64,000 nt of DNA, taken from positions 730,848 through 794,847 of the forward strand of contig OZ244208.1 of the NCBI GenBank assembly GCA_965216885.1, given 5' to 3'. The notes below the pieces were generated by a model. The model was not told the DNA's origin, searched no databases, and saw only the letters and a list, made by a program, of their open reading frames with translations. Below are positions 10,123-34,143 of the stretch, piece after piece. Both the position numbers and the translations under genes were made by a program. The stretch's first letter is position 1; each line of letters begins with the position of its first letter. The DNA comes from Pirellulaceae bacterium (GTDB taxonomy: Bacteria; Planctomycetota; Planctomycetia; Pirellulales; Pirellulaceae).

Positions 10123-10668
10123 ATGCGATGGTGGTGGATAGACCGGTTCGTTGAATTCCAGAGCGGCAAGTACGCCAAGACGGTGAAGAACGTCTCGCTC
10201 GCCGAGGAACAACTCGACGACTACATGCCTGCCCATCCGGTCATGCCGCACTCGCTCATCATTGAGGGACTGGCGCAGACCGGTGGGTTGCTGGTTGGCC
10301 AACTGAGCGATTTCGAACGCAGCGTCGTGCTGGCGAAGGTATCCAGCGCGAAGTTCTATTTCGCGCCGACGCCCGGAGACCAATTGTCGTATCACGCGGT
10401 TCTGGAAAGAATCGAAACCGACGGAGCGCTCGTCTGCTGTACCGTGCATGTTGGTGAGCGACTACAGGCGAACATTGATTTGTACTTTGCCTACTTCGAC
10501 AACCGTGGCATTCAGCGGGGCCAGTTTATTCCCGCCGACTTTTTGCGCATGATGCGCGTGTTCCGGCTTTTTGATGTAGGCGTGGATGCCGATGGCAATC
10601 CGCTGAAAGTACCCGAGAGACTGCTCGAAGCCGAAAAACAGAACCTCACGGGTTCGGTGACCTCGTAA
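10123..10668 (+). CDS. FabA/FabZ-like hot-dog dehydratase, second paralog
   Basis: YMPAHPVMPHSLIIEGLAQTGG matches the hot-dog dehydratase His motif. The start sits 4 nt after the ACP stop. The ORF-track start at 10081 would overlap the ACP gene. Confidence 0.7.
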   Translation: MRWWWIDRFVEFQSGKYAKTVKNVSLAEEQLDDYMPAHPVMPHSLIIEGLAQTGGLLVGQLSDFERSVVLAKVSSAKFYFAPTPGDQLSYHAVLERIETDGALVCCTVHVGERLQANIDLYFAYFDNRGIQRGQFIPADFLRMMRVFRLFDVGVDADGNPLKVPERLLEAEKQNLTGSVTS

Positions 10669-10736
10669 GGTTTTGTGCTTTCCGGCGAGCCGGATCGAAA
10701 GGCTCCGTATAAGAACGTCTGTTCACGGTGGCCATG

Positions 10737-10901
10737 TTATTTTTGGTCCGTCAAAACCAGCCACAAAGCGTGAACCATGCCGGGGATGCCGCCCAGCAGA
10801 GTCAGAATGATGTTAACCCAGAAGTGCATCCCTGTATTCACTTGCAAGAACGCGGCAATCGGTGGAAACACAATCGACAACACGATTTTGACAATCTGCA
10901 T
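10737..10901 (-). CDS. Pmp3/YqaE (UPF0057) family small proteolipid, 54 aa
   Basis: Not in the ORF track because it is under 60 aa. Manual translation gives MQIVKIVLSIVFPPIAAFLQVNTGMHFWVNIILTLLGGIPGMVHALWLVLTDQK. This matches the Pmp3/YqaE consensus (ILPPLGV...FWINILLT.LGYIPG.IHALY). Confidence 0.75.
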   Translation of the reverse strand: MQIVKIVLSIVFPPIAAFLQVNTGMHFWVNIILTLLGGIPGMVHALWLVLTDQK

Positions 10902-11077
10902 ACTTTCATTTCCTTGGGGTTAGTGAATTGTCCAACAGTAATTCGTCGACGGAGAGCCATTCTTGGCAAAATCCGCGTCGCGGCGAATGTCGGCGGTCCG
11001 AAAGACACGCCGGCTAAAAACGGCCGTCGTGATATGCTTATCAATCTGCAACTCAACTGTACGTTCGAGGCCCAGCC

Positions 11078-12358
11078 ATGCGAAGGCGAGTAGTCATTAC
11101 TGGAGTCGGTTCTATCAACCCGATGGGACACGATGTGGAAACCGTTTGGTCAGGCCTGAAAGAAGGCAAATCGGGCGTCGGTTTCACGTCGATTTTTGAC
11201 GCCAGTCGGTTCCCGACCAAGATCTCCGCGGAGGTCAAAAACTGGAGTGTTGCGGACGCCGGAATCGATGCGGAGGAGTGGAAGTTTCGCGGACGGCATA
11301 CTTGCTTTGCGGCCGGTGCGGCCACGCAGGCGGTCGAGGGTTCTGGTGTACTCGAAGCAGGCCTGGACCCGGTTCGCTTTGGTGTCTATCTGGGTTGCGG
11401 CGAGGGTAATCAGGATTTTGGCTCCTTCACCGAAATGATGACCGCCGCGCTGACGGATGACGGTTTGGACATCGCCGAATTTACGCGTAAGGGCCTCGAG
11501 ATTCTGAATCCGATGCTCGAGCTTGAGCAGGAACCCAACATGCCGTGCGGTCATCTCGCCAGCATGTTTAACGCCCAAGGCCCAAACCTGAATTGTCTGA
11601 CCGCGTGCGCGGCCAGTAGCCAGGCGATCGGTGAAGCCAGCGAGATCATCCGCCGCGGGGACGCGGACGTCATGCTATCCGGTGGCACGCACAGCATGAT
11701 TCATCCGTTCGGTGTCACAGGTTTCAACCTGTTGACGGCGCTCTCAGAGAACAATGAAGTGCCCGAGAAAGCCTCGCGACCCTTCGATCGACTTCGTGAC
11801 GGCTTTGTGCTTGGCGAGGGCTCCGCGATGGTTGTGCTGGAAGAGTACGAAATGGCGAAGAAACGCGGTGCTCATATTTTCGGCGAAATCCTCGGCTACG
11901 GAACGACCGCCGACGCCTACCGCATCACCGACATTCACCCGGAAGGTCGCGGTGCAATTGCCTGTATGAAGATGGCGATGGAGGACGCGAACGTTACTCC
12001 CGCAGACATTGACTACGTGAATGCTCACGGCACCAGCACCACCGTGAATGACAAGATCGAAACACTCAGCTGTCGTGCTGCTTTTGGCGACCATGCGGAG
12101 AAGATTCCCGTTTCCAGCACGAAGAGCATGATGGGACATCTGATCGCGGCAGCGGGCGTGACCGAACTGATCGTTTGCCTGATGGCAATGCGGGACAATG
12201 TGTTACCGCCGACGATCAACTACGAAAATCCGGATCCCCTGTGCGACCTGGATTACATTCCCAATGAAGCTCGTGAGGCGGAATGCAACATCGCCCTGAA
12301 TAACAGCTTTGGGTTCGGCGGACAGAATATCACGCTGATTGTCGGCAAGCCTTCCTGA
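11078..12358 (+). CDS. fabF: Beta-ketoacyl-ACP synthase (KAS I/II, FabF/FabB-like)
   Basis: Begins MRRRVVITGVGSINPMG, has the active-site Cys in the NCLTACAAS context, two His motifs (HGTSTTVND, GHLIAAAGV) and NSFGFGG at the C-terminus. Confidence 0.85.
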   Translation: MRRRVVITGVGSINPMGHDVETVWSGLKEGKSGVGFTSIFDASRFPTKISAEVKNWSVADAGIDAEEWKFRGRHTCFAAGAATQAVEGSGVLEAGLDPVRFGVYLGCGEGNQDFGSFTEMMTAALTDDGLDIAEFTRKGLEILNPMLELEQEPNMPCGHLASMFNAQGPNLNCLTACAASSQAIGEASEIIRRGDADVMLSGGTHSMIHPFGVTGFNLLTALSENNEVPEKASRPFDRLRDGFVLGEGSAMVVLEEYEMAKKRGAHIFGEILGYGTTADAYRITDIHPEGRGAIACMKMAMEDANVTPADIDYVNAHGTSTTVNDKIETLSCRAAFGDHAEKIPVSSTKSMMGHLIAAAGVTELIVCLMAMRDNVLPPTINYENPDPLCDLDYIPNEAREAECNIALNNSFGFGGQNITLIVGKPS

Positions 12359-12446
12359 TCCCAGGTCCAGCCAACATCGCCAGCTCGAACGAGAAGCTGG
12401 TTTTGAAACCTGGAGTCCAGTAGCAATTGCCCAGTAACAAAGACAA

Positions 12447-12481
12447 AGCCCCGCGCGAATCCGCGCGGGGCTTTGTGCTTT
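12447..12481. terminator. Bidirectional intrinsic terminator between the convergent fabF and the Cys-rich lipoprotein gene
   Basis: GC hairpin GCCCCGCGCG-AATC-CGCGCGGGGC flanked by T-runs on both strands. Confidence 0.65.
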
Positions 12482-12592
12482 GGTGAACTCACTGAACGAA
12501 GAACGCATCCTTTTGTGGGACGACGATCTGAGGAATCAAAATCCGGTGATCATGATCTGGGAATCACAATCCTGAATTCGAAGACCTGTAGA

Positions 12593-13024
12593 TCACGGTC
12601 CGATCGAAGGTGGATTCGAGACGAAGAAGTCGCGAGGTCCACGCGTCGTGTAGTACGGATACGTTACCTGAGGACTTGGTGGGCCGTTAGCAGGACCGGG
12701 CATTCCGCCCATGTGCGACTGCGGTCCACGATGGTGTTGGCCAATGAACGAAGCCAGAGGTCCGGTGTGCCCACCGCGAACGCCATAGCCATCGCCGTTC
12801 AACGTTTCCGGTGTTGCGCAGTTGCCGCTATTGCAGCCGCCACCCAAGCTTCCCAGTAGTCCGGATAGACCACATGCGCCCGAGGCGCAACCACTGCTGC
12901 ACGAGTCGCAACCGACCGGGCCAGCGTCACAACCGCCGGCTCCGCAGCCACCCGTGGATTGACATCCTGTGGTGGCGACGCATAGCAGAAACGCAGCCAC
13001 AAGGGCTGTCATACTCTTTATCAT
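12593..13024 (-). CDS. Cys/Gly-rich lipoprotein, paralog of 1997-3016
   Basis: The lipobox is ATTGC, followed by GGCGAGGCDAGPVGCDSCSSGCASGACG in a Gly/Pro-rich tail. I chose the internal Met at 13024 (MIKSMTAL). Confidence 0.6.
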   Translation of the reverse strand: MIKSMTALVAAFLLCVATTGCQSTGGCGAGGCDAGPVGCDSCSSGCASGACGLSGLLGSLGGGCNSGNCATPETLNGDGYGVRGGHTGPLASFIGQHHRGPQSHMGGMPGPANGPPSPQVTYPYYTTRGPRDFFVSNPPSIGP

Positions 13025-13195
13025 CTGATTTCCCCCCAAAAACGGCTCACCAGAAACGGCGCACGCCGTCTGGGTTGCCAGCAAAATGCTTGAAGCGGAC
13101 TCGTTTTCCAATGCGGGCGAAAACGAACCTGTTTAGATGATCGACCTGAGTTTCGGTAGAATTGAGAAAATCGGGAAATTCGATATGACCGAGTA

Positions 13196-15359: not shown

Positions 15360-15431
15360 GCACCCGTAGTGTAATGGATAGCACTTTGGTCTTCGGAACC
15401 AACAGTCGGGGTTCGAATCCCTGCGGGTGTA
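15360..15431 (+). tRNA. tRNA-Arg(TCG)
   Basis: Hand-folded cloverleaf: acceptor GCACCCG/CGGGTGT, D-loop AATGGATA, anticodon loop CTTCGGA, T-loop TTCGAAT. Confidence 0.75.
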
Positions 15432-15776
15432 CTTCTTAACTCTTCGTTTCTCGAAGAATGCCGACTTCCCGCGAGAATGTCGTTTGCGTGGGGGGCCTCT
15501 TGCGACTGCTTTTCCCGTTTGCGGCGCGTTGCTGCCCCACCTGTTGCCCCATGGCAACGTCCTCTGGAATCCTCATGTCAAATTGCTGAGCCAGGCCGTG
15601 GGCACACGGATTAGGAATCAGTCGGGCCGGTGTCGGCGGGCTTCGCTGTCGAGGAGTGTTGCCGGTTCCTGTCGCGAGTACGAGTAAGATACTCAGCAGA
15701 TGACGCAGCGAATTCAGAGCAGTCGTCATCGGGTTCGCCCGGGGGGCCGCACGATTCAGACGAATTTGAGACACGC

Positions 15777-18053: not shown

Positions 18054-18682
18054 GGTCTGAAGTCCGGCTGCGATTGCTGAATTTGCCGGACCGAGGGCAA
18101 TCACATGGAACACGGCGATACGCGGAACCCGCATACGTTGCTGCTCTGTGTGTCTCGGCTCTCCCCACGGTTTCGCTGATTGTCTTTCGAATGCAAAGGA
18201 CTTCCGTAGTGACGTTCGCGTCTCTTTTTCCCAGAACTCCGGCCACACTGGCCTGGCCCCAAAAGTGGCTGCGGGGGTTCTCATCCAGCGGTTAAACCCG
18301 CCCCGCCAGCGTGCGGATTCCCGCGGAATCTTTTTGCGTACCCCTCTTTCGTGACATAGAGTTGATATGCAAGGGTGGGTGCTACGAAGAAGCGTCGTCG
18401 GCGCCCGCACTTTTCTCCTTTCATTCACATTCGTGCGAAAGACAACGGCAAACCGGTCGTGAGGCCGGGACGCAAAGCCATGGGTCTCCTGTTGGAGATT
18501 GCCAGGCCGCCTAGCGACAAACCGCGAGGCTTCCAGTTTGAGTAAGTCAGATCATTCTCGCTGCGATCTCCCTTCATTTCTTCCACCGTTGATTCAACGG
18601 TTGCATCCTCTTCCATGGCCAGTCAATGCGTCGGTCTGAATCGTCAGGTCGGTCCTAGCATTGGTTCTGGAAGAGGGCGTGC

Positions 18683-20320
18683 ATGCCTGGCAATCTTATT
18701 TGTGAATCCCGGTTCGCGTTCCCAGCGCTACGTGCGTGTGGGTTCGGCGCGATTGGCATATTGCTGCTCGATATCGCCGAGCGGAATGGTTGGATTGCGC
18801 AATTGACGGAGAGCGCCCTCTGTCTGGCGATCTGCAGCGTCGTCTTCGTTGTGCTGTTGCCGCTGGCTCGCACACTTTCCGGGTTGGCCAGAATCGGCAT
18901 GACGGCTTTCGCGGTGCTGGTGTTGGCCAATTTGTCGCTGGTCGTCGTCGAAGACATTGGGCTGCTGGATTCGCTACCGTTGATCGGCCATGACAGTCGG
19001 TGGATTCATAACGTCGGAAAATTCATTGTCGCTGGCTGGACGTGCGGCCTCTTCCTGTTTATTTACGCGTTGTTGCGACAGCTTGAGGAAACCCGCGACC
19101 AGTCGATTCGCGACGCAGTTCAACTCAAACTGGCCAACGTGAAATTGCAAACGACCCTCGCCGAGCTGAAGAAGTCGCAGCAAATGGTTGTGCAGCAGGA
19201 ACGCATTTCGGCACTGGGGCAGATGGCCAGCGGTGTCGCCCACGACCTGAACAACGCGCTAACCCCGGTCTGGGCGTTTGCCGATTTCCTGCGGCCGATT
19301 GACGTGCCGGCGGAACAGCGCGAATCACTGCGTAGCATGCGGGCAGGGGTCGAACATGCCTGCCGTGTCGTAAAGCAGCTGCAGTATTTCTATCGAAGAA
19401 CGGAACGCCCGCACTGTGAGCAGGTGGCACTGTCGGCGCTGGTCGAGCAGTCCGTACAACTAACGAGATTCCGCTGGCACGATGACACACTGCGACGTGG
19501 GTTGGTGATTTCTGTCACGCTGACGCTCGACGACGACAGCCACATCGTTGTTGAGCCCACCGAACTCATTCAGGTGCTCAACAATCTTGTGTTGAATGCT
19601 GTCGAGGCGATGCCCAAGGGTGGCGAAATCGCAATCACCGTTGCGCGAGATGTTGACGTCGTGCGGCTTACGATCGTGGATGATGGCGAGGGTATGACGG
19701 CGAAGCAAAGAGCCCGCTGTTTTGATCCGTTCTTCACGACAAAGCGAGGAGGCAGCGGCCTGGGGCTGAACGTTTGCCGTACGATCGTCGAACGCTACGG
19801 TGGCACGATCGCCGTCTTTGAGGCGAAAGGTGACGGGACGAAGTTCGCTCTCAAGTTTCCGTATGCCGCTCCGGCGACTGCGAAAGAAGAGAAAACCGAA
19901 GACGTTCGCCCGCAACACAGCATGCTGGTAATCGACGACAGCGAATTCGTTCGGCAGACGATGCATGCACTTCTGACCTCTTTGGGTTTTTCGGTGAAGC
20001 TGGCGGAGGATGGTCAGAGCGGAATGGACGCCGCGCGGGAATCAGAAGCCGATCTGATCTTCGTTGACTACGCGATGCCGGGAATGACCGGCTGTGACGT
20101 CGTCGCGGGCCTGAGAGAACTCTCGCGCAACATTCCCGTTGTCGTCATGTCCGGATGGGCAAAGATGACCGTGCTGGAACAGTTTGGTAATTCCGACGTG
20201 CAGCCTGACCAGATACTGGAGAAGCCGCTAAATGCGGAAGCCATCCAGGACTGCCTCACCGGATTCGGTTTTCTCGCCGCACCAGGGGGCACGCCGCTCC
20301 CGAATGATGTGAAGTCATGA
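18683..20320 (+). CDS. Hybrid sensor histidine kinase (multi-TM sensor, HisKA, HATPase_c, C-terminal receiver)
   Basis: H-box VAHDLNNALTPV, G-boxes DDGEGM and GGSGLGL, and a receiver domain running from MLVIDDSEFVRQ to DYAMPGMTG. Confidence 0.85.
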   Translation: MPGNLICESRFAFPALRACGFGAIGILLLDIAERNGWIAQLTESALCLAICSVVFVVLLPLARTLSGLARIGMTAFAVLVLANLSLVVVEDIGLLDSLPLIGHDSRWIHNVGKFIVAGWTCGLFLFIYALLRQLEETRDQSIRDAVQLKLANVKLQTTLAELKKSQQMVVQQERISALGQMASGVAHDLNNALTPVWAFADFLRPIDVPAEQRESLRSMRAGVEHACRVVKQLQYFYRRTERPHCEQVALSALVEQSVQLTRFRWHDDTLRRGLVISVTLTLDDDSHIVVEPTELIQVLNNLVLNAVEAMPKGGEIAITVARDVDVVRLTIVDDGEGMTAKQRARCFDPFFTTKRGGSGLGLNVCRTIVERYGGTIAVFEAKGDGTKFALKFPYAAPATAKEEKTEDVRPQHSMLVIDDSEFVRQTMHALLTSLGFSVKLAEDGQSGMDAARESEADLIFVDYAMPGMTGCDVVAGLRELSRNIPVVVMSGWAKMTVLEQFGNSDVQPDQILEKPLNAEAIQDCLTGFGFLAAPGGTPLPNDVKS

Positions 20321-27255: not shown

Positions 27256-27690
27256 TAACCGGATCACTTCGCGATTTTCTGTGAACCCAATCCGGTGCAC
27301 CACGTCCTTACCCTTACTGATGCAAATCGCATCGGCGCGGTTGGCCGGGAGCAGCCCGCGGCAAACGCAAAAGTTTTCGCCATACAAGCAGATCGAGCAC
27401 GATGTTTTCCATATTCAAACAGAAATCGAACGGCAATATCGGCGGGAATGGTAATTCGTGTCCCGGGCCGCTTCGGTTGTGACGCAAGGTTGGCAATGCG
27501 AACAGCAGCAGCCCGGTGTCACACGACATCGGGCTTTTTTCGTGGTCCGATCAAGACGAAATGCTGGAGACGAAAGGCAAACGAACTGGACTGGTAGCTG
27601 AGACGGCTTAGCACCTGGTTGAAGCCCAGGAGACGAGGATTCGAGCGCCTCCCAGTCCGCTGCGTCGCGAAAGCAATGGCGCACAAATAT

Positions 27691-27763
27691 AGGGTAGAGG
27701 TGCAGAAGGAAGCACGCCTGCTTCGGGTGCAGGAGGGTTCCGGTTCGACTCCGGGGTGCCCTA
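27691..27763 (+). tRNA. tRNA-Pro(CGG)
   Basis: Canonical cloverleaf: acceptor AGGGTAG/GTGCCCT (1 mismatch), D-stem GTGC/GCAC, anticodon arm CCTGC-TTCGGGT-GCAGG, T-arm TCCGG-TTCGACT-CCGGG. Confidence 0.8.
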
Positions 27764-27811
27764 CTTGGTGACGGTGAGCTGCGGCTCGCACATTGGAAAT
27801 GAAGCGGAAAT

Positions 27812-27883
27812 TGGTCGTCGAGAGCTGGTTGCTCATCTCTTTCTGATAAGGAGAGCGCGCTGAGTTCGATCCTCAGGGCGACC
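27812..27883 (+). tRNA. Non-canonical tRNA-like gene; anticodon loop TCTGATA (anticodon TGA on a class-I body) with a short 5-nt D-loop
   Basis: Acceptor GGTCGTC/GGCGACC pairs over 7 bp (one G-U). D-stem GAGC/GCTC, T-arm CTGAG-TTCGATC-CTCAG. Confidence 0.5.
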
Positions 27884-27974
27884 ACTGAACAACGTTGAAT
27901 GATGGAACCCGGAAATACTTGAAGGAAGAGAAATGCAAACGCAACTTCGATCCAAACGCATACCCCAATAACCA

Positions 27975-28047
27975 TGGGGGTAAAGCTTTTTGGCGAAGCA
28001 GCCGGCTTTTAACCGGCAGAGCAGAGTTCGATTCTCTGTGCCCCTAC
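27975..28047 (+). tRNA. tRNA-Lys(TTT)-like with a poorly paired acceptor stem (possible pseudo-tRNA)
   Basis: Perfect anticodon arm GCCGG-CTTTTAA-CCGGC, T-arm CAGAG-TTCGATT-CTCTG; the acceptor has only 4 of 7 pairs. Confidence 0.45.
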
Positions 28048-28091
28048 TCGGTGGTGACCGAAGGAATTCGGCCATCACGCGGTAGTCGGGA

Positions 28092-28163
28092 CCTGGTGGG
28101 TCAAGCGCGTCTTATAAGCGAGCGGCGGTGGGTTCGATTCCCGCGACTACCACTCGTCAGGGC
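28092..28163 (+). tRNA. tRNA-like gene with a degenerate anticodon arm; identity unclear
   Basis: Acceptor GGTAGTC/GACTACC is perfect and the T-arm is GTGGG-TTCGATT-CCCGC. The anticodon region GCGTCTTATAAGCGAG has only weak pairing. Confidence 0.4.
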
Positions 28164-28195
28164 GAGCAGCGGAAGCATAAGTATTAGTGACAAAC

Positions 28196-28268
28196 GGGAT
28201 CAAGGTGTTAGCGGCAGCATACGTGGCTCTTAACCACGGAGGTGAGGGTTCAAGTCCCTCTGATCCCA
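28196..28268 (+). tRNA. tRNA-Lys(CTT)
   Basis: Acceptor GGGATCA/TGATCCC is perfect, anticodon arm CGTGG-CTCTTAA-CCACG, T-arm GAGGG-TTCAAGT-CCCTC. Confidence 0.8.
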
Positions 28269-28276
28269 CTGAAAAC

Positions 28277-28347
28277 GCACTGTTCGTCTAACGGAAAGAT
28301 GCCTCCTTCGTAACGAGGCGATGCGAGTTCGATTCTCGCACGGTGCC
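28277..28347 (+). tRNA. tRNA-Thr(CGT)-like with a 3-bp D-stem
   Basis: Acceptor GCACTGT/ACGGTGC (one G-U), anticodon loop TTCGTAA, T-arm GCGAG-TTCGATT-CTCGC. Confidence 0.5.
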
Positions 28348-28394
28348 CTGACGCGGAACTGGAACGGACGTGTTCCTTTGACGTTTCGCACAAT

Positions 28395-28465
28395 GTGCCT
28401 GCGGTCCAGTGGCGAGATACCTGGTTTCCACCCAGGGGATGCGAGTTCGATTCTCGCCAGGCACT
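28395..28465 (+). tRNA. tRNA-Gly(TCC)
   Basis: Acceptor GTGCCTG/CAGGCAC is perfect, anticodon arm CCTGG-TTTCCAC-CCAGG, T-arm GCGAG-TTCGATT-CTCGC; the D-stem is weak. Confidence 0.65.
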
Positions 28466-28480
28466 CTGACAATTTAAAAA

Positions 28481-28551
28481 GCGCCCATGGTGTAGTGGTA
28501 ACCCATCTGCTTGCCATGCAGAAGACGCGAGTTCAATTCTCGCTGGGCGCT
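28481..28551 (+). tRNA. tRNA-Gly(GCC)
   Basis: Acceptor GCGCCCA/TGGGCGC is perfect, anticodon arm TCTGC-TTGCCAT-GCAGA, T-arm CGCGA-GTTCAAT-TCTCG. Confidence 0.8.
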
Positions 28552-28552
28552 C

Positions 28553-28626
28553 TGCGGGATGGAGCAGTTGGCAGCTCGCAAGGCTCATAACCTTGAGGTC
28601 GATGGTTCGAGTCCATCTCCCGCTAT
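28553..28626 (+). tRNA. tRNA-Met(CAT), possibly initiator-like (mismatched 1:72 pair); body close to E. coli tRNA-fMet
   Basis: The sequence TGCGGGATGGAGCAGTTGGCAGCTCGCAAGGCTCATAACCTTGAGGTCGATGGTTCGAGTCCATCTCCCGCTA resembles the E. coli initiator tRNA. It lies 2 nt after the previous tRNA. Confidence 0.7.
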
Positions 28627-28633
28627 TTTGAAT

Positions 28634-28718
28634 ACCGGTGGGCTGACGTTGGTGTCAGGGGGTGGCTGTTAACCACCTGTGAGGAAACTCTACGCAGGTT
28701 CGATTCCTGCTGCCGGTG
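28634..28718 (+). tRNA. Non-canonical tRNA-like gene: anticodon GTT (Asn) on a class-II body with a long variable arm
   Basis: Acceptor ACCGGTG/TGCCGGT pairs over 7 bp with 2 G-U. D-stem CTGA/TCAG, anticodon arm GGTGG-CTGTTAA-CCACC, a 16-nt variable arm containing the GAG-GAAA-CTC hairpin, T-arm GCAGG-TTCGATT-CCTGC. Confidence 0.5.
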
Positions 28719-28760
28719 CTTGATTGGTATTCGTGTGCGGTGAAAGTTCCACGCGATGTT

Positions 28761-28851
28761 GGAAGGGCAAACCAATTGGCGATGGTGGCCGTCTCGAAAA
28801 CGGGTGAGCGATAATGATATCGCCTTGAGGGTTCGACTCCCTCTCCTTCCG
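28761..28851 (+). tRNA. tRNA-Ser(CGA)
   Basis: Acceptor GGAAGGG/TCCTTCC, anticodon loop CTCGAAA, a long variable-arm hairpin GCGATA-ATGA-TATCGC, T-arm GAGGG-TTCGACT-CCCTC; length 91 nt. Confidence 0.75.
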
Positions 28852-29099
28852 CTGTCGAGCTGGTGCCGATTCAAGGCGACCTCGCAACAGAAGTTTTGTT
28901 GTTTTACATGAACCCGAATCTGCGGAACGCGTCTTTAATGGCGGCAACCGAGACCGCTTAACCGAAGTAAACGAGAACGATGAATAATTTACGATCCAAC
29001 ACCGAACAATCGAGGAGCATAAACGCGATGTGTTATCGCGATTTGCTCGCTGAATATGTAATGCGGTTGTGATGTCAGGCTGACCATTGTGTCCACGAT

Positions 29100-29125
29100 A
29101 GCCCGGCATTGCCGGGCTTTTTTTG
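29100..29125 (+). terminator. Strong rho-independent terminator inside the tRNA array
   Basis: AGCCCGGC-ATT-GCCGGGCT followed by TTTTTTT. Confidence 0.75.
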
Positions 29126-29160
29126 TGCCTTCACCGAGCGGAAAGGTGAGCAAAACCAAC

Positions 29161-29233
29161 GTCCATGGAGTGTGCTGGATTCGCACGCGACCCTGCGAAG
29201 GTCGAGGATCAGGTTCGATTCCTGGCTTGGACG
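29161..29233 (+). tRNA. tRNA-Arg(GCG)
   Basis: Acceptor GTCCATG/CTTGGAC (one mismatch), D-stem GTGT/GCAC, anticodon arm CGACC-CTGCGAA-GGTCG is perfect, T-arm TCAGG-TTCGATT-CCTGG. Confidence 0.65.
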
Positions 29234-29268
29234 CTCAGCGAACGAATGGACGACAACCAGGGAACTCT

Positions 29269-29339
29269 GGCCTGCGAGTGTGATGGAAGCACGACTGACT
29301 TCGAATCAGTTAGACGAGGTTCGACTCCTCGGTGGGCTA
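29269..29339 (+). tRNA. tRNA-Arg(TCG), second copy; D-arm resembles the copy at 15360
   Basis: Acceptor GGCCTGC/GTGGGCT (3 G-U), anticodon arm ACTGA-CTTCGAA-TCAGT is perfect, T-arm CGAGG-TTCGACT-CCTCG. Confidence 0.6.
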
Positions 29340-29357
29340 CTGAAAATTGAGACGATG

Positions 29358-29430
29358 GCACGGTACGCCAATGGCGGAGCGGCTTGCTTCAAACACAAGT
29401 GATTGTGGGTTCGAATCCCTCCCGTGCTAC
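29358..29430 (+). tRNA. tRNA-Leu(CAA)-like with a short (5-nt) variable arm; non-canonical for a Leu tRNA
   Basis: Acceptor GGCACGG/CCGTGCT, anticodon loop TTCAAAC, T-arm GTGGG-TTCGAAT-CCCTC. Confidence 0.5.
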
Positions 29431-29484
29431 TGAAACACCGAGTTACCAACAACAGAGACTCCAACACCATCGAAAGGGGAAACA

Positions 29485-29727
29485 ATGAACGGCAACAACC
29501 AATTCTCCGTGCAACTTGCCAACGGTCGCGAGCAGACATTCGAAAGTGCTGAACAGATGGTGGAGTGGATGGAGCGGCAACGTAGCCCTCGACTATCGGC
29601 CAATCGCAATCGAAACGCATCTCGTCGTGGTCGTCGATCGGCGGAGAAAGCCAACCCGCGGAAGCCTGTTAGCTCCGGCGAACCACCTTTGGCACGGTAC
29701 GCGAACCGGAATAGCGGCGAAGTTTAA
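29485..29727 (+). CDS. Small basic hypothetical ORF (80 aa) embedded in the tRNA array; its 3' end overlaps the next tRNA
   Basis: A strong SD (AAAGGGG) lies 8 nt upstream of the ATG. The N-terminal 35 aa look protein-like; the C-terminal part is Arg-rich and overlaps the tRNA at 29691. Confidence 0.3.
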   Translation: MNGNNQFSVQLANGREQTFESAEQMVEWMERQRSPRLSANRNRNASRRGRRSAEKANPRKPVSSGEPPLARYANRNSGEV

Positions 29728-29764
29728 GCCTTCGTGTTTGCGGGTTCGACTCCCGCCCGTGCTA
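29691..29764 (+). tRNA. tRNA-Leu(TAA)-like with a short variable arm; shares its acceptor stem with the gene at 29358
   Basis: Acceptor GGCACGG/CCGTGCT, anticodon arm CGAAG-TTTAAGC-CTTCG is perfect, T-arm GCGGG-TTCGACT-CCCGC. Confidence 0.55.
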
Positions 29765-29811
29765 CTGACGTGGAGTCGCGAGCGTGGGTAAGTGACATGA
29801 AGTGAGGCAAC

Positions 29812-29894
29812 GAGTCGGTCGGGCAATTGGTCGTCCAGCCTGTCTGTAAAACAGGTGCCTTCGGGCGTTGGGGGTTCGATTCCCTCTCGGCTCA
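29812..29894 (+). tRNA. tRNA-Tyr(GTA), class II
   Basis: Acceptor GAGTCGG/TCGGCTC, anticodon arm CCTGT-CTGTAAA-ACAGG, long variable-arm hairpin GCC-TTCG-GGC, T-arm GGGGG-TTCGATT-CCCTC. Confidence 0.7.
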
Positions 29895-29915
29895 CTTTGC
29901 AAAGGAGTGAAGCAC

Positions 29916-29990
29916 GGCGCGGTAGTTTCTGTTGGTAGAAATCTCAGGCTTTCAACCTGAAGTTCGCGGGTTCGATTCCCGTTCGCGTCA
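29916..29990 (+). tRNA. tRNA-Glu(TTC)
   Basis: Acceptor GGCGCGG/TCGCGTC, anticodon arm TCAGG-CTTTCAA-CCTGA is perfect, T-arm GCGGG-TTCGATT-CCCGT. Confidence 0.7.
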
Positions 29991-30066
29991 CTAAGGAGGC
30001 TAGAAGCCAGAAATGAGAGGTCAGTACCACGCGGTCTGTGGTACCTCGCTTCTCGTCTCCCTTTCC

Positions 30067-30134
30067 TGCAAGCCAGTTGGCACTGAACTGACTTTCATAC
30101 GGTCGGTCGCCCGGTTCGATTCCGGGGCTTGCAA
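30067..30134 (+). tRNA. Degenerate short (68-nt) tRNA-like gene, CAT-anticodon-like; probable pseudo-tRNA
   Basis: Perfect acceptor TGCAAGC/GCTTGCA, T-arm CCCGG-TTCGATT-CCGGG; the D and anticodon arms are weak. Confidence 0.4.
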
Positions 30135-30232
30135 CTTGCGGGTCGAGCCAGCTGCTCCGCGAGGCTTCATGAGCCTCGTTGTCCGGGTGCAACTCCCGGA
30201 CCCGCCACCAACAATTATCAAGGTGCGGAAAC

Positions 30233-30311
30233 GGTCGAGTACGCAAACAGGCAAAGCGGCCAGATCGAGAGTCTGGTGACTTTGTGGGTTCGACTCCCAC
30301 TTCGACCACCA
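30233..30311 (+). tRNA. tRNA-Leu(GAG)-like with a short 7-nt variable arm and a genomically encoded 3' CCA
   Basis: Acceptor GGTCGAG/TTCGACC followed by A then CCA, anticodon arm CCAGA-TCGAGAG-TCTGG, T-arm GTGGG-TTCGACT-CCCAC. Confidence 0.5.
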
Positions 30312-30316
30312 AGAAT

Positions 30317-30389
30317 GATCCCGTGGTCCAATGGCGAAGACGCCTGCGTGACAGGCAGGAGAGTGATGGTTCGATTCCATCCGGGGTTA
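30317..30389 (+). tRNA. tRNA-Val(GAC)
   Basis: Canonical numbering fits exactly: acceptor GATCCCG/CGGGGTT, anticodon arm CCTGC-GTGACAG-GCAGG, T-arm GATGG-TTCGATT-CCATC. Confidence 0.75.
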
Positions 30390-30455
30390 CTGTTTTGAGG
30401 TGTATTAACCGAGGCAAACGTCGCGCTCGAGGAGCGCGACGTTTGCACCAACTAC

Positions 30456-30528
30456 GGGCCGACATGTTCCATGGGGGCGACTGACTCTTGCAAAGTCGGT
30501 GTGATGAGTTCGATTCTCATTCGGTCCA
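30456..30528 (+). tRNA. tRNA-Ala(TGC)-like with a degenerate D-arm
   Basis: Acceptor GGGCCGA/TCGGTCC, anticodon arm TGACT-CTTGCAA-AGTCG, T-arm ATGAG-TTCGATT-CTCAT. Confidence 0.55.
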
Positions 30529-30566
30529 CTCGCGTCGTACAGCAGTACACCGGCGAAGTAACATAC

Positions 30567-30653
30567 GGAAGGTAGCCAGATACTGGTTCGCTGGGACTGC
30601 CTGCTAAGCAGTTGGCGTTAACGCGTCTGAGGGTTCAATTCCCTTGCCTTCCG
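30567..30653 (+). tRNA. tRNA-Ser(GCT), class II
   Basis: Acceptor GGAAGGT/GCCTTCC, anticodon arm ACTGC-CTGCTAA-GCAGT, variable-arm hairpin GCGTTAACGC, T-arm GAGGG-TTCAATT-CCCTT; length 87 nt. Confidence 0.75.
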
Positions 30654-30668
30654 CTTGAAGAGGAACGA

Positions 30669-30740
30669 GGGCTCGATAGTGAAGTGGACATCACACCTTT
30701 CTTCTAAAAAGGGATGCCGGGTTCGAATCCTGGTCGGGCT
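30669..30740 (+). tRNA. tRNA-Arg(TCT)
   Basis: Acceptor GGCTCGA/TCGGGCT, D-stem GTGA/TCAC, anticodon arm CCTTT-CTTCTAA-AAAGG is perfect, T-arm CCGGG-TTCGAAT-CCTGG. Confidence 0.75.
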
Positions 30741-30762
30741 GCTGAAGACATGAAAGATATCA

Positions 30763-30833
30763 AGACGCTGGAGCCAGATGGCAAGGCGGCTGCCTGCAAA
30801 GCAGTTGAAGTGGGTTCGATTCCCACCGGCGTC
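30763..30833 (+). tRNA. tRNA-Cys(GCA)
   Basis: Acceptor GACGCTG/CGGCGTC, anticodon arm GCTGC-CTGCAAA-GCAGT, T-arm GTGGG-TTCGATT-CCCAC. Confidence 0.7.
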
Positions 30834-30934
30834 TCTTTTAGGCAAGTTTGAAATCGCTGGGCCAGCGGCGCACTTCGCTCTCTATGAGTTGCGGGGTGTG
30901 TTCCGAACATGGGTTTTGATCAAGGCGATTTCGA

Positions 30935-31006
30935 GCGTGGTTAGCTCAGAGGTAGAGCACCAGACATTTAATCTGGCAGTCACAGGTTCGACTCCTGTAC
31001 CACTCC
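30935..31006 (+). tRNA. tRNA-Lys(TTT)-like with an unusual C32/A33 anticodon loop (CATTTAA)
   Basis: Acceptor GCGTGGT/ACCACTC (one mismatch), D-arm GCTCAGAGGTAGAGC, anticodon arm CCAGA-CATTTAA-TCTGG, T-arm ACAGG-TTCGACT-CCTGT. Confidence 0.55.
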
Positions 31007-31450
31007 GCAGATTGCACTCTGCTCCGAGAGGTGTGTTTTGGAACACAACCACGATGAAAGCCTGAAGATGGTGGGCGTTTTTCGGTCGGCCAACATTTAA
31101 ACCAACGCATTTCACGCGGTCGGCTACGGTCGAGGACGACGAAATCGCAGCGGTTGAAATGGGGGCAACATTGGCAACCGCCTTGCAGTGAATGGATACC
31201 GTGAACTGACGTCCGCTGCCGGACACCGGGACGCTCGATCACCGAAGTGGAAACTGGTCCACGGACGTGATGGAGCGGAAGCCGTGCGAAGCAGCGAGCA
31301 AACGCTTACTTAAATTCGCTCCGCGATTTGTCGTGTGAACGACGAACGTACCGCCGTCGGAAGGTTTTGAATTGAGACACTTTGTATTACTGGTTTGAGT
31401 TTTTGTGCTCTTCGATTGAAGTGAAGGGCAGTCGTGAAGGAGGAAGAGGC

Positions 31451-32551
31451 ATGTTTCAGCGTATCAAGATCCGTAGCTTTGAGGCAGGATTGCACTTCAG
31501 TGACGGCGAGTTCAAGGGCGTTCTGGGCCAGGGAAGTCACTGGCAGTTCAACCCGCTGCAGAAGCACCGCGTTGATGTCGTGTCGCAGCGTGACCCGTGG
31601 CTGGTTCACGGTTGTCTCGACATGATGATCCAGTCGGGTTTGCTGGGCGAGCGGGCGACGGTTGTTGACCTGAAGGATCACGAGCGAGCGCTAGTTTGGG
31701 TCGACGGACGTTTCAACCGCATTTTGCCGCCGGGACAGTACGCCTACTGGAACGGATTTCGTGATGTGCGAGTTGAAGTGGTCGACGCGCGCGAAGTTCG
31801 CTTTGAGCATCCGGAGCTGAAGTTGATCGCGGGATCGCCGAATGCACAAATGCTCTTGGACGTTTGCATGGTCAACCGTAACAACGCCGGTGTCCTGTTT
31901 GTTGACGGCAAGTTCATCGATACGCTTTCGCCGGGTCAGTACGCATTTTGGAAGGGTGCGTCGGACTCGCGACTGGTCGAAGTCGACCTGCGTGAGACGA
32001 TCGTTGACGTCAGCGGTCAGGAAATCATGACGGCCGACAAGGTGACGCTGCGCATGAACGCGGTCGTTACGTACCGCATCGCTGACCCGTTGAAGTGCGT
32101 CACGCAGACGGATGACGTGCGACAGGCGCTCTATCGGGAAACGCAGTTGGTGGTTCGCGAGATCGTGGGTGCCCGTGAGTTGGACGCGTTCCTGACGGAG
32201 AAGGATGTCGTCGCGACGGAAATCGCGCAGGCAGTCAGCGAACGAGCTGCAGACCTCGGTTTGCACCTGGCGTCGGTCGGTATTCGGGACGTGATCCTGC
32301 CGGGTGAAATGAAGGATCTGATGAACAAGGTCACGGAAGCGCGGAAGGCGGCCGAGGCAAACCTGATCGCACGTCGCGAGGAAACGGCGGCGATGCGCAG
32401 CCAGGCAAACACGGCGAAGGTATTGGCGGACAACCCGACGTTGATGCGTCTGCGAGAGCTGGAGGTTCTGGAGAGCATCGCGGCGACGGGTAAGTTGAAC
32501 GTTGTACTCGGCGAAAAGGGATTGGCCGACCGTGTGACGAACCTGTTGTAA
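31451..32551 (+). CDS. SPFH/Band-7 (stomatin/flotillin-like) domain protein with a duplicated N-terminal about 55-aa motif
   Basis: RBS GAAGGAGGAAG upstream. An SPFH core (TADKVTLRMNAVVTYRI...) is followed by a C-terminal coiled coil. I chose the Met at 31451 (MFQRIKI). Confidence 0.65.
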   Translation: MFQRIKIRSFEAGLHFSDGEFKGVLGQGSHWQFNPLQKHRVDVVSQRDPWLVHGCLDMMIQSGLLGERATVVDLKDHERALVWVDGRFNRILPPGQYAYWNGFRDVRVEVVDAREVRFEHPELKLIAGSPNAQMLLDVCMVNRNNAGVLFVDGKFIDTLSPGQYAFWKGASDSRLVEVDLRETIVDVSGQEIMTADKVTLRMNAVVTYRIADPLKCVTQTDDVRQALYRETQLVVREIVGARELDAFLTEKDVVATEIAQAVSERAADLGLHLASVGIRDVILPGEMKDLMNKVTEARKAAEANLIARREETAAMRSQANTAKVLADNPTLMRLRELEVLESIAATGKLNVVLGEKGLADRVTNLL

Positions 32552-32577
32552 TCCTGCCCCGTGCCGATCAACAAAAA

Positions 32578-32617
32578 AGCCCCGCTCGAATCTCTTCGGG
32601 CGGGGCTTTGATTTTTC
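32578..32617. terminator. Bidirectional intrinsic terminator between the convergent SPFH and HDOD-GGDEF genes
   Basis: AAAAAAGCCCCGC-loop-GCGGGGCTTTGATTTTT. Confidence 0.65.
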
Positions 32618-32625
32618 GGTGATCT

Positions 32626-34143
32626 CTAGGAAGTGAGGGCTTCTTCAGCGTCTGCGAAGACGACGCAGTTGCGGCCTTTTCGTTTGGCTTCGTACAAGGC
32701 CTTGTCCGCGAACTCAATGAGTTCACGGCTGTTGGTGTCGGGGAATCGCTGGGAAGCCGCCAACCCGAAACTGGCCGTGACGTTTACGTCGCCGTCGTCC
32801 GTTGGGACCGCATGCTTCTCAATGGATTGGCGGAAACGGTCGGCAATGTCGAAAACGTGGTCAACCTTAGCGTTGTGAAGGATGACGCAGAATTCTTCTC
32901 CGCCGTAGCGGGCGAGAAAGTCGGTGCCGCGAACGCATGCCGCCAGTACCTGCCCGACCTCGCGGAGGACCGCGTCACCAACAGCGTGGCCATAGGTGTC
33001 GTTGAACTTCTTGAAGTGATCGACGTCGATCATCATGACCGCATACGGCAACGCGGTCTTACTCTTGCGGGAACTGTCCAGCTGATCGAGTTCCAGCTCC
33101 AGCGCGTGCCGGTTCGGGATTCCGGTGAGTGCGTCGGTGGTCGAAACTTCCTCGAGACGTTTGTTCTCATGCTGAAGTTCGTCGGCTTCGGTTCTTGCTT
33201 CCGACAGGTCGGTCGCCATTCCAAGGCTGAGCATAACCAGTTGTTGCCGGGCCTGTTCCAGAATGGAAGCACAATCGAGCCCGTTGTCGAGCGGACTGTT
33301 GAATGATTCGAGGGCTTCTTCAATTGCCATTTGGCTGGAGATCACCAAACGCTCCATGGCACTGGCGGAAACGCCCAGCAATTCGACCGAAAGGCGATGC
33401 AGGTCCTGCATGACCTGCGCTTTGTCCTTGCTGAACACCAATTCGGCGGCGAGGTCGGCAAGATGTACGATTGCGGCCATCTCGTCGGCGTCCGTCTTTC
33501 GATCGGCACTGGCCTTGGGTTTCTCCCAGCTTCCGACGACTTCGGATATGACACCAGGCAGCTCCCATTTTTCCAACAGGATTCGTCCGGCAACGTGATG
33601 ATCGGTCGACAACAGGTCGCGCTCCTGCTGGGGCGACGGCAACGCCCCGCCGGCAGCCTTGATCACGTCGACATATTCATCGGGGATGATGGTGCTAAGC
33701 AACAATTGACCGATACGCGAGATCAAGCCGCACAGGAAGACCTGCTCGTTCTGTTCGAAACCAACCAGTCGGGCAATGCCTCGCGCGAACACGGCGGTCG
33801 CGATGGAGTGTTGCCAGAGTAGCGGATCTGATTTGCCCGACGCGTCCTGCCACCCGGGGAACTTCTCCTTGATGGAGAAGCCAAGGGCCACGATCAGGAT
33901 TCGTCGAGTTCCCAGATTCGTGAGCGCTTCCTTGAGTGTGGTGATTGTCCGCCCACGAGAGAACGTGCTGGAATTCACCAACTTCAGGATTTTGGCCGCG
34001 AGTGCCGGGTCCATGGAAATGATATCGCTGGCAAGCTGCATGCCGGCGTCGGGGTTCCTCGAGAACTCAAGGATCTCGAGGACGACGTGAGGTGGATTGG
34101 GTAGCGAATCCACGTTTTTTAGTTGTTCGTTTATGTCGGGCAT
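32626..34143 (-). CDS. HDOD-domain plus GGDEF diguanylate cyclase
   Basis: The N-terminal HDOD signature runs from LPNPPHVVLEIL through KILKLVNSSTF. The C-terminal GGDEF domain has an RYGGEEF active site. I chose the Met at 34143 (MPDINEQL). Confidence 0.75.
   Translation of the reverse strand: MPDINEQLKNVDSLPNPPHVVLEILEFSRNPDAGMQLASDIISMDPALAAKILKLVNSSTFSRGRTITTLKEALTNLGTRRILIVALGFSIKEKFPGWQDASGKSDPLLWQHSIATAVFARGIARLVGFEQNEQVFLCGLISRIGQLLLSTIIPDEYVDVIKAAGGALPSPQQERDLLSTDHHVAGRILLEKWELPGVISEVVGSWEKPKASADRKTDADEMAAIVHLADLAAELVFSKDKAQVMQDLHRLSVELLGVSASAMERLVISSQMAIEEALESFNSPLDNGLDCASILEQARQQLVMLSLGMATDLSEARTEADELQHENKRLEEVSTTDALTGIPNRHALELELDQLDSSRKSKTALPYAVMMIDVDHFKKFNDTYGHAVGDAVLREVGQVLAACVRGTDFLARYGGEEFCVILHNAKVDHVFDIADRFRQSIEKHAVPTDDGDVNVTASFGLAASQRFPDTNSRELIEFADKALYEAKRKGRNCVVFADAEEALTS

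Follow-up and report, generated by a model that had tools for sequence, protein, structure and literature searches.

A chromosomal array of divergent tRNA genes with putative leader-peptide attenuators at a conserved locus of planctomycetes

Why would a planctomycete keep a long row of divergent transfer RNA (tRNA) genes at one site of its chromosome? The question is raised by a 64-kb stretch from a Pirellulaceae bacterium (contig OZ244208.1, positions 730,848 to 794,847), hereafter the window, in which 27 plus-strand tRNA genes occupy window positions 27588-31006. Judging from comparative sequence analysis, we consider it probable that these genes form a chromosomal array of the L type, composed of spare and mostly functional divergent tRNAs, which is long-resident, partly eroded, under selection for structure, and gated by a leader-peptide attenuator. 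This kind of array is already known, also in Planctomycetes; novelty is likeliest for the attenuator, for a lineage of short-arm leucine tRNAs in common with cyanobacterial arrays, and for two RNAs at the 3′ end of the locus, here called X and Y. Four rival explanations, namely a decaying relic, a non-translational reservoir, a recently acquired island, and a housekeeping cluster, are less well supported and are weighed below where the evidence bears on them. Long tRNA arrays are widespread and poorly understood, with functional data only for an operon of Anabaena.

With 27 genes in 3.42 kb, all in the plus orientation, the array reaches a density of 7.9 genes per kb. The window holds 28 tRNA genes by ARAGORN, the 28th being an isolated Arg-TCG gene at 15360-15432. 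The original prediction, which was made from the letters of the stretch, had described a dense same-strand array of 25 genes in 27691-31006, and this array is real: ARAGORN places 26 plus-strand genes in that interval and a Phe-GAA gene just to its left. The array exceeds the minimum of at least 20 tRNA genes and at least 2 per kb that defines an array unit (Tran et al. 2015), and it has the single orientation and co-transcription spacing described by Santamaria-Gomez et al. 2021 (PMC8421152), who defined the L-array class, listed Planctomycetes in it, and noted a conserved HNH gene. Spacers measure 0-99 nt apart from two gaps of 308 and 260 nt, so that the full range is 0-308 nt rather than the 2-100 nt first given. 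A leader and terminator at 28980-29124, inside the array, divide it into two units (sub-arrays). The 3′ part is no assembly artefact, since 30111-34064 is matched at 99.8% identity by two independent metagenome assemblies.

The original prediction held many members to be non-canonical, and scoring with the Rfam tRNA model RF00005 (threshold 29 bits) gives a divided picture. At least 29 bits are reached by 19/27 array genes; the three long-arm genes at 28634, 28762, and 30567 score best on the tRNA-Sec model, under its threshold; and five (27813, 28081, 30067, 30137, and 30456) give no RF00005 match. The median of the detected genes is ~51 bits, versus 63.3 for the stand-alone Arg-TCG gene at 15360. 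Within the 64-kb window of the genome, redundancy is seen for arginine: as predicted, there are three Arg genes in the array and another elsewhere, and Arg-TCG occurs in two versions with 70% identity, the array copy at 47.8 bits and the canonical copy at 15360. Asp, Gln, His, and Trp tRNA genes are absent from the array and must therefore be encoded elsewhere; Phe and Ile, which had been counted among the missing, are represented by the gene at 27588 and by GAT and TAT anticodons. Ala-TGC and three CAT genes are also present, and two genes encode CCA (30137-30210 and 30233-30311) where one had been counted. The leaders and array genes are listed below in order; the related arrays and orthologues to which they are compared are those of the planctomycete loci described thereafter.

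27402-27482 (+): leader open reading frame (ORF) 1, encoding MFSIFKQKSNGNIGGNGNSCPGPLRL; UGA stop at 27480-27482, within the antiterminator strand GTGACGCAAGGTT (27479-27491)
27510-27540 (+): leader terminator 1, AGCCCGGTGTCAC..GACATCGGGCTTTTTT; 48 nt 5′ of the first tRNA
27588-27660 (+): tRNA-Phe(GAA), first gene of sub-array 1; ARAGORN, Rfam 51.2 bits, 86% identity to related-array Phe-GAA
27691-27764 (+): tRNA-Pro(CGG); ARAGORN, Rfam 42.4 bits
27813-27885 (+): Ile-GAT anticodon on a non-canonical body; ARAGORN loop CTGATAA, no Rfam match
27976-28047 (+): tRNA-Lys(TTT); ARAGORN, Rfam 52.8 bits
28081-28153 (+): TAT anticodon, body akin to the 27813 type; ARAGORN, tRNA-Sec model 28.4 bits
28196-28269 (+): tRNA-Lys(CTT); Rfam 53.4 bits, 93% identity to orthologues
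28277-28348 (+): tRNA-Thr(CGT); ARAGORN, Rfam 48.2 bits
28395-28466 (+): tRNA-Gly(TCC); Rfam 51.1 bits
28481-28552 (+): tRNA-Gly(GCC); Rfam 66.0 bits, the array maximum
28553-28625 (+): CAT-anticodon tRNA with canonical body, abutting Gly(GCC); Rfam 62.2 bits; 85% identical to the CAT gene at L045:11247, which lies outside the L045 array
28634-28719 (+): Asn(GTT) orthologue, 86 nt, G73; ARAGORN, tRNA-Sec model 30.6 bits
28762-28852 (+): tRNA-Ser(CGA), class II, last gene of sub-array 1; ARAGORN, 82% to orthologues, tRNA-Sec model 44.6 bits
28980-29072 (+): leader ORF 2, encoding MNNLRSNTEQSRSINAMCYRDLLAEYVMRL; UGA stop at 29070-29072, within GTGATGTCAGGCT
29100-29124 (+): leader terminator 2, AGCCCGGCATTGCCGGGCTTTTTTT, a strong hairpin with T-run; 37 nt 5′ of Arg-GCG
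29161-29234 (+): tRNA-Arg(GCG), first gene of sub-array 2; Rfam 41.2 bits, 92% identity to orthologues, which in relatives lie beside Cys at the array 3′ end
29269-29340 (+): tRNA-Arg(TCG), divergent duplicate of the 15360 gene; Rfam 47.8 bits
29357-29430 (+): Leu(CAA), short variable region, A73, 3-bp D stem and long D loop (Leu-type); ARAGORN, Rfam 47.1 bits
29691-29765 (+): Leu(TAA), short variable region; Rfam 49.6 bits, 87% identity to the relatives' Leu-CAA
29812-29895 (+): tRNA-Tyr(GTA), class II; ARAGORN, Rfam 38.4 bits
29916-29991 (+): tRNA-Glu(TTC); Rfam 49.9 bits
30067-30135 (+): CAT-anticodon tRNA, 69 nt, miniature D arm; ARAGORN, no Rfam match
30137-30210 (+): second small CAT-anticodon tRNA, T loop TGCAACT, CCA encoded; ARAGORN, no RF00005 match
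30233-30311 (+): Leu(GAG), short variable region, C33 (loop TCGAGAG), CCA encoded; Rfam 45.2 bits, 87% to orthologues
30317-30390 (+): tRNA-Val(GAC); Rfam 53.4 bits, 92% to orthologues
30456-30529 (+): Ala(TGC), weak T stem, G3:U70 and A73 kept; ARAGORN, no Rfam match, aligned with orthologues
30567-30654 (+): tRNA-Ser(GCT), class II; ARAGORN, 84% identity to orthologues
30670-30742 (+): tRNA-Arg(TCT); Rfam 51.4 bits
30764-30835 (+): tRNA-Cys(GCA), U73; Rfam 57.9 bits, 96% identity to L076
30935-31006 (+): tRNA-like element X (ARAGORN 'Lys-TTT', A33); Rfam 56.9 bits

Whether such an array is a peculiarity of one genome can be judged from the same locus in related planctomycetes. A scan with the SPFH/Band7 protein encoded just downstream, taking one genome per species, recovered 80 loci at 65-74% identity, mostly from Planctomycetaceae-type metagenome-assembled genomes. 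Array presence was counted in the 45 loci, each from a different species, whose sequence extends 4 kb or more beyond the 5′ side of the SPFH homologue: same-strand tRNAs number 15-40 in 16 of these, 5-14 in 3, and 1-4 in 20, while 6 have none. The syntenic arrays for which the original prediction had suggested a search are thus present in 16/45 species, and the distribution is patchy (≥15 tRNAs in 16/45, ≤4 in 26/45), as is typical of L-arrays. Related arrays have a largely, not strictly, common order, which runs Phe, Glu, Pro, Ile, Lys, Ile-TAT, Lys, Thr, Gly, Pro, Asn, Ser, Gly, Gln and so on in the 5′ half and Val, Leu, Asp, Leu, Tyr, Glu, Leu, Met, Leu-GAG, Val, Thr, Ala, Ala, Ser, Arg, Ser, His, (HNH), Trp, Thr, Arg, Arg, Arg-GCG, Cys, X in the 3′ half. 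The window tRNAs are mostly 80-96% identical to related-array genes of the same anticodon.

Compared with these relatives, the window copy appears partly eroded and rearranged. It lacks the His, Trp, Asp, and Gln tRNAs, several other isoacceptors, and the HNH endonuclease gene (PF01844, ~198 aa) that stands between His and Trp in 15 related arrays, and its Arg-GCG and Arg-TCG genes have been relocated to the head of the second unit. The HNH gene belongs to the array family and, by this comparison, would have been lost from the window copy. Other cargo of related arrays (an RNA ligase, DUF4291, and a 233-aa ORF) was not found in the window either. DUF4291 lies inside some related arrays, and in L025 it is joined by the RNA ligase (PF09414) (L025:6397-7867, L054:5268-5867, L002:6530-7122; the L002 copy of DUF4291 is frameshifted); this cargo hints at a link to tRNA repair. 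The SPFH/Band7 gene is the sole protein-coding gene that is syntenic with the array across species, and for the window's DedA, GSDH, Kelch, kinase, GGDEF, sigma, and FlhA genes, no syntenic counterparts were found in the 80 related loci. A single chromosomal site holds one array family, its cloverleaf under selection, across many planctomycete lineages. The spacers 29992-30066 and 30391-30455 carry strong inverted repeats without a T-run, GGTACCACGCGGTCTGTGGTACC and CAAACGTCGCGCTCGAGGAGCGCGACGTTTG, for which no similarity to the related loci was found, and an 80-aa ORF at 29485-29727 was rejected as a gene, as it has no homologue there.

Are the odd members damaged genes or types in their own right? 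Across the related arrays, most of the non-canonical members are family traits that are kept by compensatory changes. The clearest case is that of the three Leu genes (CAA, TAA, and GAG), for which the predicted short variable arms are confirmed: they are 74-79 nt long with a variable region of 6-9 nt. The arm is too short for a canonical class II tRNA-Leu, while A73 and the Leu-type D-arm architecture are retained. In the related arrays, Leu-CAA, GAG, TAA, and TAG are all 73-79 nt, and only Leu-CAG is class II. In an alignment of the short-arm Leu genes (n = 41), the cloverleaf is 97.8% paired, compared with 30-47% in controls with slid partners, and double compensatory changes occur at 13/20 pairs. 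C33 is conserved in Leu-GAG, and the Leu-TAA gene of the window duplicates the CAA type, with C34 changed to T. The Anabaena array has Leu-CAA, TAG, GAG, and TAA genes of the same build (75-78 nt, Leu-type D arm, A73), and those of an Acidiphilium array measure 82-84 nt. A literature search on short-arm bacterial tRNA-Leu in arrays found nothing specific. These tRNAs offer a natural test of how far the bacterial leucyl-tRNA synthetase dispenses with the long variable arm.

The other unusual bodies tell a similar story, and the striking mismatch between anticodon and body that had been predicted mostly dissolves, with the short-arm Leu type being conserved in all related arrays and in Anabaena. 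The GTT gene does have an extra arm (86 nt), as predicted, but it is no class II body with a foreign anticodon: apart from a ~11-nt insertion in the variable region, it can be aligned with the Asn-GTT genes (76 nt, G73) of 12 related arrays. We had entertained a Ser body with an Asn anticodon, that is, a mistranslating tRNA, and rejected it on the basis of this alignment. The gene at 27813 indeed has a 5-nt D loop, along with a GGTCGTC acceptor and a 4-bp D stem, whereas its anticodon is not TGA, since the loop CTGATAA reads GAT. This type is 75-84% identical in L003, L045, L059, L062, L064, and L077, and its anticodon stem shows compensatory changes; the TAT gene at 28081, which fails RF00005, is 73% identical to the gene at 27813. 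The very short gene, given as 68 nt, has 69 nt and belongs to a small CAT type of 69-71 nt that is conserved in related arrays; a CAT subtype with the T loop TGCGAC, of which the window copy is the gene at 30137, is conserved in L025, L030, L053, and L059. The Ala orthologues share the peculiarities of the window's Ala gene, including G3:U70. Identity elements are kept: Ala G3:U70 and A73, Cys U73, Gly U73, Leu A73, Asn G73, and Ser G73 with the long arm. Anticodon loops are canonical except in Leu-GAG (C33) and element X.

The 3′ ends follow a common pattern. Of 565 array tRNAs, 83-86% carry the trailer N73-C74-T75 and 9 encode CCA. We rejected this ending as an array-specific trait: most stand-alone tRNAs that were inspected in these planctomycete genomes, including 15360-15432, have the same N73-C-T ending and rarely encode CCA. 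It looks like a lineage-wide trailer convention, and, as it is shared with the stand-alone tRNAs, the array would use host-type 3′ processing signals.

How might so many spare tRNAs be kept under control? The window holds two leaders (27402-27540 and 28980-29124), each consisting of an ORF and a terminator, and one precedes each sub-array. In both units, an intrinsic terminator (hairpin and T-run) lies 5′ of the tRNA genes. The strong terminator that had been predicted to split the array at 29100 is confirmed (29100-29118) as part of the second leader, and leader ORF 2 with its terminator explains both this split and the low-GC gap, whose predicted dip is likewise present (GC content 0.494 in 28853-29160 versus 0.552 in the array). 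The hairpin sequence AGCCCGGTGTCAC..GACAYCGGGCTTTTTT is found upstream of the first tRNA in 15/16 full arrays, though the upstream protein genes differ; the hairpin at 27510-27540 was accordingly rejected as a mere terminator of the DedA gene. In related arrays, the hairpin lies 5-139 nt 5′ of the first tRNA. In three of them the distance is only 5-18 nt, which leaves no room for a promoter, so the array must be transcribed through the hairpin.

An alternative helix shares a strand with this terminator. About 25 nt upstream of the hairpin, GTGACACCTGGC is the reverse complement of the hairpin 5′ arm, and in ten aligned leaders, the terminator is 99% paired and the mutually exclusive antiterminator 87%, with slid controls at 21-47%. 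In 15 leaders, an ORF (23-40 codons) terminates at one shared, conserved TGA within the GTGAC of the antiterminator strand. Its frame is open for at least 26 codons in 11/11 leaders tested, as a rule longer than the other two frames. The peptides are related: they begin with M-x-(F/L)-(R/S)-S, have ..(F/I)A.QPAN.. in the middle, and usually end in (P)LR(L/W). The simplest reading, which we infer from these sequence features, is ribosome-mediated attenuation. A literature search did not find ribosome-sensing attenuation of a tRNA operon, and the combination of a leader ORF, a UGA within the antiterminator, and a terminator before each sub-array appears to be undescribed.

By this mechanism, each unit would be read from a promoter upstream of the short leader ORF, whose UGA lies inside a strand A; strand A can pair with B, the 5′ arm of the terminator B:C just before the first tRNA. 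When the leader is translated efficiently, the terminating ribosome would cover A, B:C would form, and the array would stay off. When ribosomes stall or fail on the leader, owing to translation inhibitors, tRNA shortage, or tRNA cleavage, A would be free to pair with B and transcription would read through. RNase P and a 3′ endonuclease would then trim the primary transcript into tRNAs, to be finished by the CCA-adding enzyme, which would be needed because the genes end in N73-C-T and rarely encode CCA. Host synthetases would charge the products, yielding an alternative tRNA pool. The position of the ORF stop in the antiterminator, ahead of a terminator, predicts induction of the array by translational stress. 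The leader combination could provide a concrete mechanism by which arrays are kept silent yet able to answer translational stress or damage to tRNAs, and it may explain why divergent spare tRNAs are retained. More tentatively, the locus may amount to a self-contained 'translation-failure' module, in which a leader peptide would switch on spare tRNAs, including the short-arm Leu lineage, next to the two undescribed RNAs X and Y.

Several observations weigh against an attenuator-gated array of mostly functional tRNAs. Covariation in the leader is thin (2 double-change pairs per helix, with 22-51 of 500 shuffles reaching the observed value), which is a consequence of the high conservation of the leader sequences. 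The L033 and L080 leaders have no ATG in the expected frame, and the peptide end of L054 differs. The two leaders of the window show less antiterminator complementarity than those of the relatives, and their minimum-energy folds contain only the terminator. No sigma-70-like promoter was found in a scan that may not suit Planctomycetes. The Anabaena operon is controlled by the TrcR repressor and promoter direct repeats and not by attenuation (PMC8421152, PMC10272220); given this repressor, the regulatory analogy is functional rather than mechanistic. In the array itself, tblastn found no HNH homologue in the window, and the window's TAT gene is degenerate by comparison with the canonical Ile-TAT of the relatives, which scores 64-72 bits. 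Five members, this one among them, give no RF00005 match, and some of the array may therefore be dead.

Taken to its end, the last point becomes the view that the whole array is a decaying relic, made up of unexpressed and mostly drifting pseudogenes and kept by its adjacency to Cys, X, Y, and the SPFH gene. The failure of 5/27 genes on RF00005 and the median of the detected genes, ~51 bits versus 63 for the stand-alone Arg, would be expected of such a relic, as would the loss of HNH, His, Trp, Asp, and Gln, the rearranged order, the damaged look of the TAT and 86-nt Asn genes, and the reduction to ≤4 tRNAs at the locus in 26/45 related species; in passages of Kim et al. 2016 (PMC4807772), clusters of this sort are called 'degenerate'. 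A relic would not, however, be expected to keep its stems by compensatory changes across genera, to retain identity elements and canonical anticodon loops, or to show odd body types that are conserved rather than random. The 3′ trailers also follow the host convention, a conserved regulatory leader precedes the array, and tRNAs of the homologous Anabaena array are charged in vivo (23/26 aminoacylated; PMC8421152). We therefore regard a relic as unlikely and retain the reading of a partly eroded array of mostly functional tRNAs.

What, then, are the elements that follow the last ordinary tRNA? The 3′ end of the locus is completed by two further features:

31060-31368 (+): structured RNA Y, between X and the SPFH gene; RNAalifold, nhmmer; adjoins the array and is not a member of it
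31451-32551 (+): SPFH/Band7 gene; Pfam PF01145, 80 homologous loci

The spacer between Cys-GCA and X (30836-30934) is conserved, at 72-95% identity in ~15 related loci, whereas the other array spacers are not. Orthologues of X occur at ~45 related loci (e.g., L002:9110-9185 and L066:9440-9516). Among 41 aligned copies, the D arm, anticodon stem, and T arm are almost invariant, while the anticodon triplet shows maximal entropy (atg, cag, att, act, agt, aac, aaa, gat, cat, among others). Conservation does not extend to U33, some copies have A34 anticodons or 8-nt loops, and the outer part of the acceptor stem is frayed, pair 1-72 being formed in 8/41; many copies end in ..ACCA. By this pattern of conservation, X would be a tRNA-like module and not a decoder. 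For Y, of ~300 nt, the structure predicted by RNAalifold has 60 pairs, of which 49 show compensatory changes, and an nhmmer profile matches upstream of the SPFH homologue in ~70/80 loci, with two copies in L015. A search of Rfam over the X-Y region at E ≤ 10 gave no match besides the tRNA model on X. Y may be a new RNA or the 5′ leader of the SPFH gene, and X and Y are both candidates for new RNA families.

X also brings up the proposal, made in the original prediction, that the array is a reservoir of regulatory or non-translational tRNA-like RNAs. Such RNAs might act as decoys for tRNA-cleaving toxins, as regulators, or as processing signals. X fits the proposal clearly, with an unconstrained anticodon loop and a frayed acceptor in an otherwise almost invariant molecule. 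The 69-71-nt CAT genes with their non-canonical D arms and T loops point the same way, as do the RNA ligase (PF09414) or DUF4291 genes of some related arrays and the 'sponge' role suggested for the Anabaena array (PMC8421152). For the array at large, we think this explanation quite unlikely: X apart, the members have conserved anticodons, U33 and a purine at 37, and synthetase identity elements, none of which a decoy would need. The proposal hence fits X only, and a pool of tRNAs for translation remains our preferred reading of the rest.

Could the array have arrived recently, as a phage-derived or mobile island? This was another suggestion of the original prediction, and some observations on the array family favor it. 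L086, an IMG/VR record (IMGVR_UViG_3300049594_000559, positions 1075-13057), carries tape-measure, collagen-like tail-fibre, mannosyltransferase, and methyltransferase genes, directly followed by the leader hairpin and a 32-tRNA array of the same order with HNH. HNH homing endonucleases have been linked to the spread of arrays (PMC8421152), and the presence of the array among species is patchy. On the other hand, L086 may be a prophage that adjoins a chromosomal array, and the window shows none of the marks of a prophage or integrative island: array GC (0.552) is near that of the window (0.573), no integrase or transposase turned up among the large ORFs that flank it, and no att-like flanking repeats were found, the direct repeats being tRNA T arms only. 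A blastn search of the array against 50,697 phage records returned generic single-tRNA matches covering ≤5% of the query. The Cys-X-Y-SPFH context in all carriers, with SPFH proteins at 65-74% identity and the locus occupied in 16 related species, implies long residence. Thus, while a phage link is possible for the array family, nothing suggests recent acquisition in the window, and we hold a recent island to be very unlikely.

The genes around the array are of the usual chromosomal kinds for a planctomycete. Their proteins, as assigned by Pfam, are WD40, histidine kinase, Kelch, GSDH-CBM6, and DedA on one side and SPFH/Band7, HDOD-GGDEF, sigma factor, and FlhA on the other. A hybrid histidine kinase/response regulator gene (18683-20320) is preceded by a c-di-GMP-I-GGC riboswitch aptamer (18438-18515, +; Rfam 69.1 bits).

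Finally, does the array simply supply the cell with its main tRNAs, as an ordinary housekeeping cluster would? Some related arrays hold 35-40 tRNAs for almost all amino acids, the trailers match those of host tRNAs, and Cys-GCA, perhaps with Arg-GCG, is conserved where the array is missing. According to passages of Kim et al. 2016, Planctomycetes typically have a single tRNA-Cys (PMC4807772), and the Cys-GCA gene, found also at array-less related loci, may be the housekeeping one. With this exception, the genes are not the canonical, high-scoring, and universal set that a housekeeping operon would contain. The array lacks Asp, Gln, His, and Trp and duplicates the canonical Arg-TCG at 15360, its scores do not reach that of the stand-alone tRNA, the array is missing from over half of the relatives, and a default-off terminator stands ahead of both units. 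The same passages give 44-57 tRNAs for planctomycete genomes without arrays and 76-96 for those with arrays (PMC4807772). We thus find a housekeeping role the least probable of the explanations considered and return to that of a spare tRNA set in comparing the array with known systems.

The original prediction knew of no described example in a planctomycete; such examples exist. Two surveys list Planctomycetes among the array-bearing phyla (PMC4758250, PMC8421152), and degenerate clusters holding 2-28 tRNA genes, tRNA-Ile-UAU among them, are reported from this phylum in passages of Kim et al. 2016 (PMC4807772, S2 Text), where they are read as dispensable and horizontally acquired. As far as these passages go, the clusters resemble the present array in phylum, in having up to 28 low-scoring genes, and in including a TAT gene. 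They differ in being found mainly in Rhodopirellula and its relatives, with weak similarity and disrupted synteny, whereas the family of the window array has a conserved order and locus across many Planctomycetaceae-type genomes; nor is the window's TAT gene the canonical, high-scoring one. The leader, HNH gene, short-arm Leu, X, and Y were not found in the passages of that paper. The array units of Acidithiobacillus, Mycobacterium plasmids and phages, and Firmicutes (PMC4758250; Morgado & Vicente 2018, PMC5966550) are similar in their redundant isoacceptors, homing endonucleases, and mobile elements, but have no gene order in common with the window array, and those of Firmicutes are housekeeping arrays linked to rRNA operons. 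The tRNA clusters of phages (T4, T5, and mycobacteriophages) likewise combine dense same-strand tRNAs with HNH or Seg endonucleases and divergent isoacceptors; unlike them, the array in the window has no phage genes nearby, and its nucleotide similarity consists of generic tRNA matches.

Ribosome-mediated attenuation is known from the trp, his, and leu leaders and from the antibiotic-responsive leader ORFs of ermC, vmlR, and lmo0919. The leaders described here share with these systems the short ORF, a stop codon at which the ribosome would mask the antiterminator, the mutually exclusive antiterminator and terminator helices, and the U-tract. They differ in that the predicted targets are tRNAs rather than an amino-acid biosynthesis or resistance gene, and in that neither a run of a single regulatory codon nor an upstream '1:2' pairing was identified in them.

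The closest counterpart is the trn operon on plasmid delta of Anabaena/Nostoc sp. PCC 7120, reportedly described by Puerto-Galan and Vioque in 2012. Like the window array, it is a long same-strand array of more than 20 divergent tRNA genes, some of them pseudogene-like; its tRNAs are supernumerary, as those of the window array would be. The translational-stress response that we predict here has its parallel in the induction measured in Anabaena, where translation inhibitors induce the operon (PMC8421152). The two differ in that their gene orders are unrelated, and in that the present array is chromosomal and fixed by the SPFH gene rather than carried on a plasmid; the window copy also lacks HNH, and its leader-peptide attenuation is a prediction from sequence. 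The likeness to cyanobacterial and other arrays that had been noted at the outset is borne out by the HNH endonuclease of the array family, which matches all8564 of plasmid delta over 97% of its length (30% identity, E = 4e-19), a gene located immediately upstream of the 24-26-gene trn operon. Another HNH homologue lies inside a 31-tRNA array on an Acidiphilium plasmid; a match on an Acaryochloris plasmid was rejected as array-linked, as there are no tRNAs within 6 kb. Together, the homologous HNH genes and the short-arm Leu tRNAs suggest that the planctomycete and cyanobacterial arrays have a deep common origin.

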